NCBI GenBank assembly: GCA_020634035.1
Contig: JACKCM010000007.1
Span: forward strand, 42,508 to 106,507
Length of the DNA stretch: 64,000 bases
Reading direction: 5' to 3'
Source: Candidatus Obscuribacterales bacterium
Lineage (GTDB): Bacteria > Cyanobacteriota > Vampirovibrionia > Obscuribacterales > Obscuribacteraceae
Every line of letters starts with the position of its first letter. Within the stretch, counting starts at the first letter, position 1. Below are positions 39,475 to 46,658 of this stretch, in pieces. The notes under the pieces are model-generated. The model was not told the DNA's origin. It was given only the letters and a program-made list of their open reading frames with translations, and did no database searches. Both the position numbers and the translations under genes were made by a program.

Positions 39475-40119
39475 TTGCGACGCGAGCAGTTTACGATGTT
39501 GGAAGGTCGCGACCAGCACGAGGCAGAAATATCAGCTATGACGAAGTTAGGAATCAACCCGGGAGCCAAGTTATTCAAAATCAAAGTCACTCTCCTTGGT
39601 GTCAAGCCAGAGATATGGCGGCGTTTGCTTGTCCCTGGCAACATCAGGCTAGATATGCTTCATGAGACCATTCAGTGCTCAATGGGGTGGAAGGACTGCC
39701 ATCTGCATGCTTTTCATATAAAAGGCATTGTATATGGTGATCCGGACAATCCTCCTGCCGAGAATTTCAAGACTGAACGAGGCACCAGGTCAAAGTTGAA
39801 ATTTCTCGATTTGCAGGTCGGCGACAAATTTCTGTATGTTTATGACTTCGGCGATGATTGGGTTCATGAGGTTCTCATCGAAGAGATATCGGAGCCAGTG
39901 CCGAAGGAGACCTATCCTCGTCTTATCGGGGGCGAGCGCAACTGTCCGCCGGAAGACTGTGGCGGACCTCCTGGTTATGAGAGTCTTTTGCGAATTCTTG
40001 CTGACCCCTCGGACCCTCAGTATGGCGAAACTCTGGAGTGGTTGGGCGGTTCTTTCGATCCGGAGGGCTTTGACCCGAATGCTTATCGCTTCATTCCCAT
40101 GATGCTAACTTATTCATGA
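39475..40119 (+). CDS. pRiA4b ORF-3-like family protein (IS1096 passenger TnpR-like, PF07929-like)
   Basis: YVYDFGDDWVHEVLIEE motif and KVTLLGVKPEIWRRL. The likely true start is the ATG at 39538 (MTKLGINPG). Confidence 0.65.
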   Translation: MRREQFTMLEGRDQHEAEISAMTKLGINPGAKLFKIKVTLLGVKPEIWRRLLVPGNIRLDMLHETIQCSMGWKDCHLHAFHIKGIVYGDPDNPPAENFKTERGTRSKLKFLDLQVGDKFLYVYDFGDDWVHEVLIEEISEPVPKETYPRLIGGERNCPPEDCGGPPGYESLLRILADPSDPQYGETLEWLGGSFDPEGFDPNAYRFIPMMLTYS

Positions 40120-40206
40120 GCTCCGGTTGCAGCTGGAAGAGTCGCTCGGTCGCGTGAGTGCTTCCTTGGCTATATACTAGAGTCATGCTAGCCATCAGGT
40201 CCGTCA

Positions 40207-42378
40207 ATGTCCGACCGCTCTGACAAACCTAAGCCAAAAGAAGTCTCTGCCGAATCCCGGACTGAGCGCGATGCCTCCCGAGCTGGTAGCGACCAGGCTC
40301 ACGCCGACATGCCTGAGCACATGGAAAAATCTCAGAAAGAGAAGGGCGCCTACGAGCAAGCGGGACTAGTCCCGGAATCTCGCGGACCCACTACCGACAA
40401 CTTCGGGCGCCTGGAACTGTCCGAGGTCAAAGACGGCGAGAAAGTCATCTACGTGGCGGAAGCCCCCGGCCGTAACAGCCTCAAAGACAGGCCGGACCCC
40501 GGCACAGCCGCAGCCAACGCCGACAAAGCTGACCCTTATCCCTCATACACGCGCGGTCTTGAAGCCGCCAGGCAGAGCGCGAAGACTCCGGAGGAAGCGG
40601 CGAAGGCAGAGATTGACTTCAACCAGAGCTACATAGAGCGCAAGCTGCGGGCTTCGGGTAAAGACCCTGCCGAGTTGCTGCAGGAGCATATGAAGAGTCA
40701 GGAGCCAGATCAGGATGATCCTGCTCATGGTGGGACATTCAAAGTCCCCCAAAATGTCGCCGAGAAGCACGACGATGGCTCTGTGCTTTTAAAAATCAAT
40801 GTCTCTGACAATGTTCAAGCGGAGGACCGCCCCCCGTTGACCAACAGCCCCGATGGTTGGCTGGAAGCCGGTCGAAGAATAGCCGAGCTGCCGCTCGACA
40901 AACAGTTGCAGATTATAGGCTCTGGTCTTGCCGCCGGTATCAATCAATACCAGCATGAGGAGAACCAACGCAACTGGGGGCGCGTCATTGGCACCGTCCA
41001 GGGTATTGGCGAGGTATCTGTCAATCTCGCCAAAATCGCCGACTTCAGCGCCGCGCTTATTCTGAACGACCATGATCGTGCCGGCAAGATGGGGGCGGAG
41101 TTTGGGCAATCGCTGGGTGAAACCATTGTCGGTGGCGTCAAGCTTTTCAACGCCGCCGATCAGTATCTGTTCAATATCGGATTCACCGGGGATTACGGCA
41201 AACCTTTTCGTGATGTGGTCCAGCTCGGCAGTGCCATGAACGAGAAGTGGGCGGCTTTGCCTCCTGGTGAGCAGGAGCGCATTAAGTTCAAGCTCTTGAC
41301 GGAGCTTGGTGCCGACACGCTGATTGGGGGCGGTGGGCTGCACTCTGCCGGTAAGGCTGGCAAGCTGACAGAGTTTCTTGATGATGTCGCCGGGGAGATG
41401 GCGAAGCAAGGGAAGAAAGTTTTCGACGGGGCGAAGAAGCGCGCCAGGGTCGTGAGGGATGCCGTCGAGGATTATATGCTGCCCGATGCGGTGACTCCAG
41501 ATGGGATGAGGATTAAGATAAAGCCGGCTAGAGAGGCGCCGGACAATGCTGTTTACTCCCAGGCGCATAATCCGGGTGGTTCTGACTTGCCCAATCCGGG
41601 TAATCCACCAGAGCGTGCTTCAGGGCAACTGTCCGGGCGACCAGAGGAGCCCTCGCCGGTGCGAACGGGCGGAGGTCCATCGGATCACCCACCGGAGAGC
41701 CCATCGCACAAGCCACCCCAGCGTGGCTCTCACCATGACTCACCCAACGAACCAGAGCGTCCTGCGGACAAACCTGACCACCGGGAATCTGAGGACGATA
41801 TCTTCAAACCACGAGATATGCATCAAGAGATTATGGATGCTATTGAAGTTTTAGATGAACCCTTGAAAGAGTTTATTGAAAAGTACAAGGTTAAGATTGA
41901 AATCATAGAAAAAATGGAAGATGCATTTCCCGGTGATGTGGAAAAAATGAAATATTTGGGGTCTTATGATTGGGGGCGAAATACTATCTTTGTTCCAAAA
42001 ACAGTGTGGCATAGAGGCGAGTATATAAATAACTTCGATTTAGATTTTGCTATTCGTCATGAGGTAGGCCACGCCGTTAACGCCAAATCACTGGAGAAGC
42101 CAAATCGTTTCTACTCGTCGCCGGTTCGAATAACTGACAAGGATTCATTTTTTATGGAGGCCTTCGCCAAAGATATTCCAAACGTTCCGTCCGATGTTTT
42201 GCGGACCCTCGGATTCGACATTCAAACAGAGAAGGGTCTTGCATTCGCTCGAGACGAAGTTTTTGCAGACACTTTTGCACATGCTACTGGTTTCCCTACA
42301 AAGAATCTTCGTTCGCAGCTAATGAGGAAGTATTTCGTCAACACATTCAAACATATGGAGGGACTTCACGGTGTCTAA
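40207..42378 (+). CDS. polymorphic-toxin-like protein (723 aa) with C-terminal HExxH zincin-like domain (RHEVGH)
   Basis: N-terminal leader SRTERDASR and PEHMEKS. HEVGH lies at nt 42058-42072 with a downstream Glu (MEAFAKD); the RHEVG context is shared with the 822- and 865-aa proteins. Confidence 0.6.
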   Translation: MSDRSDKPKPKEVSAESRTERDASRAGSDQAHADMPEHMEKSQKEKGAYEQAGLVPESRGPTTDNFGRLELSEVKDGEKVIYVAEAPGRNSLKDRPDPGTAAANADKADPYPSYTRGLEAARQSAKTPEEAAKAEIDFNQSYIERKLRASGKDPAELLQEHMKSQEPDQDDPAHGGTFKVPQNVAEKHDDGSVLLKINVSDNVQAEDRPPLTNSPDGWLEAGRRIAELPLDKQLQIIGSGLAAGINQYQHEENQRNWGRVIGTVQGIGEVSVNLAKIADFSAALILNDHDRAGKMGAEFGQSLGETIVGGVKLFNAADQYLFNIGFTGDYGKPFRDVVQLGSAMNEKWAALPPGEQERIKFKLLTELGADTLIGGGGLHSAGKAGKLTEFLDDVAGEMAKQGKKVFDGAKKRARVVRDAVEDYMLPDAVTPDGMRIKIKPAREAPDNAVYSQAHNPGGSDLPNPGNPPERASGQLSGRPEEPSPVRTGGGPSDHPPESPSHKPPQRGSHHDSPNEPERPADKPDHRESEDDIFKPRDMHQEIMDAIEVLDEPLKEFIEKYKVKIEIIEKMEDAFPGDVEKMKYLGSYDWGRNTIFVPKTVWHRGEYINNFDLDFAIRHEVGHAVNAKSLEKPNRFYSSPVRITDKDSFFMEAFAKDIPNVPSDVLRTLGFDIQTEKGLAFARDEVFADTFAHATGFPTKNLRSQLMRKYFVNTFKHMEGLHGV

Positions 42379-46454: not shown

Positions 46455-46460
46455 AGACTA

Positions 46461-46658
46461 ATGAGAATTTTATATGTTTATGATTTCGGCGATGATTGGG
46501 TTCATGAGGTTCTCATCGAAGAGATATCGGAGCCAGTGCCGAAGCAGACCTATCCTCGTCTTGTCGGGGGCGAGCGCAACTGTCCGCCAGAAGGCTGTGG
46601 CGGACCTCCTGGTTATGAGAATCTTTTGCGAATTCTAGCCAATCCATCGGACCCTTAA
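46461..46658 (+). pseudogene. truncated second copy of the pRiA4b-ORF3-like gene (C-terminal 65 codons only)
   Basis: About 93% nucleotide identity to 39846-40016; it lacks the N-terminal two thirds of the intact copy. Confidence 0.6.

Follow-up and report, generated by a model that had tools for sequence, protein, structure and literature searches.

Partial repeats of a gene close to foreign DNA have been described in several kinds of locus. In tRNA-associated genomic islands, direct repeats derived from the 3′ portion of a tRNA gene are found together with an intact tRNA gene at one end, and mosaic islands of this class can hold pseudogene relics. Islands of the e14/icd type sit in the 3′ end of a protein-coding gene and duplicate that end, so that foreign DNA separates the intact gene from a partial direct repeat of itself. 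In the orphan arrays of contact-dependent inhibition (CDI) and Rhs toxins (CdiA-CT/CdiI), a conserved body carries swappable C-terminal tips with an immunity gene after each, and the repeated homology is a piece of the toxin gene itself, fused upstream of each orphan tip. Here we examine a stretch of 64,000 nucleotides (hereafter the window) from Candidatus Obscuribacterales bacterium (GCA_020634035.1, contig JACKCM010000007.1), in which one intact gene of the PRiA4_ORF3 family (Pfam PF07929) and two partial copies of it are interspersed with a polymorphic toxin-immunity module, a Fic gene and a DUF6880 gene.

A preliminary description of this DNA had suggested, from the repeated PRiA4_ORF3 (PRiA4) sequences, that the toxin and Fic modules were swapped in at a common site. 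We favour another reading, to which we give a probability of about 0.6: the two fragments are not exchange sites but relics, left when additional PRiA4 copies were trimmed by insertions and deletions as the mobile-element-derived island turned over. The region from ∼34 to 50 kb is a mosaic island of accessory genes, and the locus is an ordinary, further instance of a known phenomenon.

Three PRiA4_ORF3 sequences and their surroundings

The intact gene is a full-length, high-scoring PRiA4_ORF3 member (207 bits, the curated cut-off being 26.6; match over profile positions 2–172 of 173) and is in itself ordinary. The open reading frame (ORF) around it covers 39475–40119, its upstream extension reaching a TTG at 39475. 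The true start is probably the ATG at 39538, because the close homologues are all 193 aa long. Self-comparison of the window recovered all three PRiA4 sequences nearly exactly where the preliminary description had placed them and allowed their limits to be refined. The truncated copy, given before as 46476–46652 with ∼93% identity, extends over 46466–46655 and matches 39827–40017 (blastn, 93.2% over 191 nt, E = 5e-78). The degenerate fragment, given as 42855–42907 with a 6-bp deletion, begins at 42852 and matches 39880–39941 (84% over 62 columns, with the one 6-nt deletion, E = 2e-13). No further PRiA4 copy was found in the 64-kb window by tblastn and blastn. A 42-nt core (39900–39941) is common to the three sequences at 93–95% identity (93% for the small fragment), and each copy carries private substitutions within it.

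Similarity to PRiA4 stops abruptly at both edges of both fragments. These are internal pieces of the gene: they end at the equivalents of 39941 and 40017, 100–180 nt short of the end of the gene, and neither extends to the stop codon at 40119. The truncated copy, which starts 12 nt past the DUF6880 stop, reads as a 65-aa ORF (46461–46658).

As judged from nucleotide alignments, both fragments coincide with seams between blocks of independent ancestry, namely the toxin/immunity module, a tRNA-Val remnant with the Fic gene, the DUF6880 gene and a helix-turn-helix (HTH) pair (Table 1). Homology of the toxin module to three other loci (L099–L101; comparison loci carry L numbers throughout) starts near 40175, ∼35 nt 5′ of the toxin start. 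With L100 it runs beyond the immunity stop to ∼42847, inside a truncated third gene whose remnant covers the first ∼22 codons of a 138-aa gene following the immunity gene in L100 and is ∼80% identical to its start at the nucleotide level. Since the small PRiA4 fragment starts at 42852 and this homology ends at ∼42847, the fragment abuts the truncated gene. At the other seam, homology of the DUF6880 block to the related species L107 (82% nt identity) is limited to the coding part, 45094–46438, and ends 28 nt 5′ of the truncated PRiA4 copy.

The changes that separate the full and the truncated copy bear on the history of the latter. Over 63 aligned codons, 8 synonymous and 6 non-synonymous changes were counted (dS 0.21, dN 0.043, dN/dS 0.21), where neutrality would predict ∼3 of the 14 to be synonymous. 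Most of the divergence therefore arose while both were working genes. Purifying selection acted on the truncated copy before it was cut, and the copy itself appears to be a once functional, diverged PRiA4 gene that was later cut down. A recent local duplication followed by decay was considered as its origin, and the same ratio argues against it. The truncated copy is unchanged in ∼23 metagenome contigs and in the sister-strain contig L106; locus L097 is no guide to its conservation, all L097 differences lying in another gene.

Table 1. Features of the PRiA4_ORF3 locus and its surroundings (window coordinates)
Feature	Position	Strand	Remarks
AbiEi/AbiEii toxin-antitoxin pair	34267-36004	+	
IS1380-type DDE transposase	36372-37802	-	
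Second tRNA-Val-like remnant	39078..39137	-	D arm and anticodon arm
Intact PRiA4_ORF3 gene	39538..40119	+	193 aa; Pfam PF07929, E = 1.8e-61
Polymorphic toxin gene (predicted)	40207..42378	+	723 aa; variable N-terminus, conserved centre ~210-440, C-terminal HEVGH domain
Segment with toxin C-terminus and 5′ part of immunity gene, replaced in L106	41283..42477	+	Non-alignable allele
Cognate immunity gene	42371..42730	+	119 aa; overlaps toxin stop
Third toxin-module gene, 5′ remnant	42782..42848	+	Ends 3 nt before small PRiA4 fragment
Segment absent from L106	42828..44760	.	1,933 nt; small PRiA4 fragment, hairpin, tRNA-Val fragment, Fic
Small PRiA4 fragment	42852..42907	+	56 nt; residues 115-135; 6-nt deletion; no ORF
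Terminator-like hairpin	42958..42985	-	12 bp, with T-run; immediately 3′ of tRNA remnant
tRNA-Val(TAC)-like gene, 3′ half	42990..43041	-	Acceptor 3′ strand, T arm, part of anticodon arm
Fic-domain gene, SoFic-like	43141..44685	-	Pfam Fic, E = 3.7e-13; PADLOC SoFic, E = 2e-23
DUF6880 gene	45093..46454	+	453 aa; Pfam PF21810, E = 1.2e-47
Truncated internal PRiA4 copy	46466..46655	+	Residues 97-160 of 193; 93.2% identity over 191 nt
Overlapping pair, 116-aa protein and 184-aa HTH_3 protein	46891..47792	+	Toxin-antitoxin-like
Imm33-like gene, orphan	49544-49876	+	

Differences between strains and the tRNA-Val remnants

About 25 metagenome contigs are 98–100% identical to the window and have the same gene order, and the repeats are not rearranged in any of them. 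As representatives of the same strain, they are little informative. The informative comparator is L106, 97.3% identical to the window across DUF6880, and it establishes that the locus exchanges and loses blocks between strains. Alternative contents, for which the preliminary description had proposed to look in related strains, are indeed found there: L106 has another toxin C-terminus, two extra immunity paralogues and no Fic block.

L106 holds the 3′ 92 residues of PRiA4 at 99% protein identity, and over 39839–40139 (the 3′ part of the gene plus the 20 nt that follow) a single mismatch was counted in 301 nt. Divergence begins 21 nt past the PRiA4 stop with a patch at 40140–40166 (10 of 27 positions differ), after which toxin identity drops from ∼95% to ∼80%. 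The toxin body is 90% identical at the nucleotide level and the C-terminus is different: a HELSH C-terminus occupies the equivalent place, followed by immunity paralogues of 118 and 87 aa. Alignment resumes within the immunity gene (83%, then 98%), and the window-type immunity gene persists in L106 as a downstream orphan (70% aa identity). Further on, L106 joins window position 42827 straight to 44761 at a junction without homology. Positions 42828–42847 match L100 at 16 of 20 positions, and the difference is therefore a deletion in L106, not an insertion in the window. Both the full and the truncated PRiA4 copy are present in L106. The breakpoints seen in this comparison lie at ∼40140, at 41282 in the toxin gene, at 42478–42641 in the immunity gene and at 42827/44761; none falls inside any PRiA4 copy.

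These results divide the cassette exchange between PRiA4 repeats that had been proposed: the position of the fragments at block seams and the variation between strains stand, and the location of the breakpoints, outside all PRiA4 copies, speaks against exchange at the repeats. PRiA4 as a common swap site for the toxin and Fic modules is not borne out, given that the loss of 42828–44760 in L106 was homology-free and that the toxin orthologues lack PRiA4. None of the orthologous toxin-immunity modules in L099, L100 and L101 (57–68% identity) has a PRiA4 neighbour, and two of the three lie near integrase genes or integrase fragments.

The one candidate for a common site with direct evidence is the tRNA-Val remnant and not PRiA4. 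The tRNA remnants were noticed on visual inspection before a focused Rfam search was run on L001 (GCA_020431955.1), whose own remnant (216–300) reaches 28.4 bits with the Rfam tRNA model (E = 3.4e-4; gathering score 29). Window positions 42990–43039 are 90% identical to L001 226–275. The two remnants of the window share a 19-nt repeat, CCCCTTCGGTGTAAACG, at 39078 and 43023, the first 17 nt of which are identical (0.03 expected by chance). L001 departs from the window exactly at 39078, within the tRNA remnant, and its left remnant is more complete: it retains the T arm and the acceptor 3′ strand, which are missing in the window. ARAGORN found no tRNA gene in the window, in L001 or in any of the 12 loci scanned, and a general Rfam search of 36–50 kb at E ≤ 1 gave no match. 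In addition, a perfect hairpin with a 10-bp stem lies at 39012–39039 (GAGCACTTCG TGGTTAA CGAAGTGCTC); in it recurs the junction of D stem and anticodon stem from the tRNA remnant 64 nt to the right.

Origin of the PRiA4_ORF3 fragments

PRiA4_ORF3 is a widely mobile accessory gene. It was found in 2,843 of 72,556 plasmid records, most of them conjugative, and four phage records also have it. We examined the loci of six close homologues (L003–L008, in four distinct contexts) and of 80 distant ones. The close homologues are 66–72% identical, and the downstream gene differs in each of the four contexts. In the 80 distant loci PRiA4 is nearly always single, among heterogeneous neighbours; the best match in a species-representative genome collection has 50% identity. 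Tandem or multiple copies were seen in L028, in L049 and on seven plasmids of one Nostoc strain.

According to the reading that we favour, the ancestral island would have held at least two, and probably three, complete PRiA4 genes, the extra ones being either diverged paralogues or arrivals on related mobile elements. Two of these genes would have been trimmed on both sides by illegitimate insertions and deletions, and the internal fragments that remain would be functionless scars marking the block seams. Turnover of the locus instead takes three routes: replacement of the toxin C-terminus together with its immunity gene, through crossovers in conserved flanking or coding sequence; homology-free deletions; and, probably, past integrase-mediated insertion at a tRNA-Val gene. 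The homology-free 1.93-kb deletion in L106 provides a present-day example of a truncation-type event. The anatomy of the locus, its block boundaries, the events between strains, the mobility of the family and the purifying selection are shown by the data; the number and order of the truncating events, like the arrival route of the extra copies, are inferred. Several observations weigh against the relic reading. Two internal fragments need about four separate truncation events, which is poor parsimony, and the retention of the same 42-nt core in both has an estimated chance of ∼25% if retention was random. None of the genomes compared shows the multi-copy state presumed to be ancestral. In three strain comparisons (L001, L089 and L106) the intact PRiA4 gene stays conserved and its flanks vary, which a role as recombination anchor would predict as well. 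Finally, at site 39907 the full copy of L106 groups with the truncated copies, which may hint weakly at exchange between the copies or reflect an old polymorphism.

If PRiA4 instead acted as a homology arm, an incoming piece made of part of PRiA4 and a cargo would cross over with the resident gene and displace the old cargo, with a piece of PRiA4, downstream. The order observed (full gene, cargo, fragment, cargo, fragment) is the one such displacement would give; the cargo between the full and truncated copies does vary by strain, PRiA4 is the conserved left flank in L106 with divergence setting in so soon after its stop codon, and the dN/dS of 0.21 is also compatible with a displaced allele. 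A single-crossover insertion would, however, leave a copy running through the stop codon, and internal fragments lacking the 3′ end of the gene are therefore not predicted by simple displacement, whether mediated by homology or by att sites. Moreover, what comes after the small fragment is the hairpin, the tRNA remnant and the reverse-strand Fic gene instead of a displaced module, no observed breakpoint lies in a repeat, the pattern of full gene, cargo and fragment occurs in none of the 86 other PRiA4 loci, and the toxin orthologues do without a PRiA4 neighbour. We regard this displacement as unlikely. The same objection to repeats that stop before the gene 3′ end meets the proposal that the 42-nt core is an att site and the locus a tandem series of integrated elements with an attP that mimics PRiA4, comparable to e14 in icd. 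It would account for the presence of the same core, at 93–95% identity, in all three copies; the direct repeats on the flanks of successive blocks, unequal in length, are reminiscent of tandem island arrays, and L003 has an integrase two genes away from a close homologue of PRiA4. On the other hand, no Pfam integrase or recombinase was found in 34–50 kb (ORFs ≥ 110 aa), the presence/absence polymorphism of 42828–44760 in L106 is not bounded by the repeats, and the att-like remnants that do exist are the tRNA-Val fragments, so that we hold the att reading to be very improbable. A broader version, in which PRiA4_ORF3 is the conserved anchor of a hotspot for variable cargo, its core (39900–39941) the specific recombination site for serial insertion of blocks and the fragments old junction copies, finds as little credit with us; if it held, a very widespread family of plasmid genes would gain its first functional handle.

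Two further explanations were considered. The fragments might be filler DNA templated by the intact gene at break-repair junctions, or their similarity might be kept up by gene conversion, and separate full copies would never have existed. One event per fragment would then suffice, both fragments lie exactly at junctions, and one polymorphic site, 39907, is shared. A copied patch is nevertheless difficult to reconcile with a dN/dS of 0.21 at a dS of 0.21, which denotes long coding evolution, with a length of 191 nt, or with the private core substitutions of each copy, and we consider this origin improbable. As for the 65-aa ORF at 46461–46658, it might be translationally coupled to DUF6880 and work as a mini-gene of its own: the DUF6880 stop is followed after 6 nt by an in-frame ATG, the frame is open to the end of the homology, it has been called as a gene and is invariant in ∼23 contigs, and PRiA4 and DUF6880 are adjacent in L008. 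Invariance is uninformative here, the sampled strains being near-identical across the stretch; only one third of the domain is covered, and DUF6880 occurs without PRiA4 in L102–L105 and L107–L111. A functional mini-gene seems to us extremely unlikely. Under the relic reading the consequences hardly go beyond annotation: both short PRiA4 matches, the called 65-aa ‘gene’ among them, are best annotated as relics of pseudogenes, and the island is a fast-turnover patchwork.

Neighbouring genes, toxins and described systems

In the distant loci, the one recurring neighbour of PRiA4 is an IS66-family transposase, located directly upstream in 9 of 77 loci. It lies on the same strand and was met in several phyla (among others in L019, L023, L032, L033, L042, L047, L063 and L078), which suggests that PRiA4 is a passenger gene of IS66-family insertion sequences (IS) in those loci. 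Other annotations under PF07929 are plasmid pRiA4b ORF-3 family protein and ‘resolvase’/TnpR-like IS passenger. In L046 (123–10206) and L048 (463–7362), from a Gemmatimonadales metagenome-assembled genome (MAG) and an unclassified MAG, respectively, the flanks of PRiA4 recur as paired repeats ∼105 nt apart, about every kilobase. This has the pattern of an integron-like cassette array with PRiA4 as a putative cassette. The closest PRiA4 homologues are preceded by a gene for a ∼290-aa protein with a HEAAH (HExxH) motif and no Pfam match (L003 1503–2381, L004 1932–2804, L005 3–800, L007 1–774); its stop overlaps the PRiA4 start in L003 and L004, an arrangement that suggests a two-gene operon. The window holds no remnant of this ∼290-aa gene, no IS66 transposase remnants, no attC-like repeat family of integron cassette arrays and, by tblastn, no remnant of the L003 integrase. 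At 38536–38847 (+), upstream of PRiA4, it does hold a segment with 40% translated identity to a 128-aa gene of L003, which there comes right after PRiA4 and is encoded on the other strand. An ORF with a start codon covers only 75 aa of the segment, which is probably a decayed gene.

The accessory island exceeds the span studied here, the AbiE pair, the IS1380-type transposase and the orphan Imm33-like gene framing the region. The Fic gene is called with 514 aa in L001, and its ORF reaches 44760. Upstream of its start, at 44712–44793, three to four 24-nt tandem units begin with CTAGTTTAT[TC]; the right end of the L106 deletion (44760/44761) lies inside this array. DUF6880 adjoins a 514-aa Fic gene both in the window, where the two are divergent, and in the related-species loci L107–L110 (10001–12916), where they are convergent and 12 nt apart. 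The window and related-species Fic proteins share the core motif only (29% over 85 aa); at the nucleotide level, DUF6880 alone is homologous. A metagenome scan with the single DUF6880 protein as query gave no match. An obligate PRiA4-DUF6880 pair was considered and rejected: the two genes are adjacent only in L008, and not in the metagenome loci L102–L105, the related-species loci L107–L111 or the 80 genome loci. A literature search returned nothing on the function of PRiA4_ORF3, MM3350 or DUF6880.

From the architecture of its homologues, the 723-aa protein can be read as a genuine polymorphic toxin. The homologues share the central region (residues ∼210–440) at 40–56% identity and differ in their C-termini, the alternatives including a PF21111 CdiA-EC869-like domain, a PF14424 deaminase and other domains. 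In the translation, a proline/serine-rich stretch separates the central domain from the HEVGH C-terminus. The latter, corresponding to residues ∼550–723 (41850–42378), has no Pfam or PDB sequence match, and the N-terminal 448 aa, examined for a secretion or trafficking domain, gave no Pfam, NCBIfam or PADLOC match. A diverged HELSH version is found in L106 (369–2414), followed by three related small genes, and HEVGH/HELSH probably represents a metallopeptidase-type toxin domain not described before, accompanied by its immunity family. The immunity gene accompanies the toxin in L099 and L100 (46–48% identity). PRiA4 itself was considered as a toxin partner or immunity protein and rejected, as there are toxin orthologues without PRiA4 and no toxin family is enriched near the 80 PRiA4 genes. 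Two more polymorphic-toxin-like loci were noticed in the window, at 28100–31668 and 52569–58425. They encode proteins of 822 and 865 aa with C-termini related at 28% identity; small paralogous genes, two after the 822-aa gene and four after the 865-aa gene, are presumed to encode immunity proteins. As a by-product, the comparison with L106 provides a clean natural case of replacement of a toxin tip and its immunity gene with retention of the old immunity gene as an orphan, in probable Melainabacteria. The names that do accompany toxin and DUF6880 homologues point to the order Obscuribacterales of the Melainabacteria as the probable source of the chromosome. Little is recorded on polymorphic toxins in this group, and most of the homologues retrieved have neither a name nor a domain annotation.

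How does the locus compare with the systems described at the outset? It resembles CDI/Rhs orphan arrays in the conserved toxin body, the swappable C-terminal tips and the immunity gene after each, and also in that L106 carries another C-terminus yet keeps the old immunity gene as an orphan. In those arrays, however, the repeated piece comes from the toxin gene, whereas the repeats of the window derive from a separate ORF, PRiA4_ORF3, and no toxin tip follows either fragment. With e14/icd islands it shares the succession of intact gene, foreign DNA and partial direct repeat, and differs in that the repeats are internal, integrase is lacking and the polymorphism is not bounded by repeats. Of the features of tRNA-associated genomic islands, direct repeats of the tRNA 3′ part are present in the window and an intact tRNA gene at one end is not. 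The closest description is that of pseudogene relics in mosaic tRNA-associated islands. The window departs from it in having no surviving integrase or intact tRNA gene, and agrees with it in the intact and truncated copies of a mobile-borne gene whose homology ends abruptly at seams, in the tRNA fragments, IS element and toxin-antitoxin or defence genes, and in the deletions between strains. The intact gene of the window, like other members of the PRiA4_ORF3 family, sits in mobile DNA.

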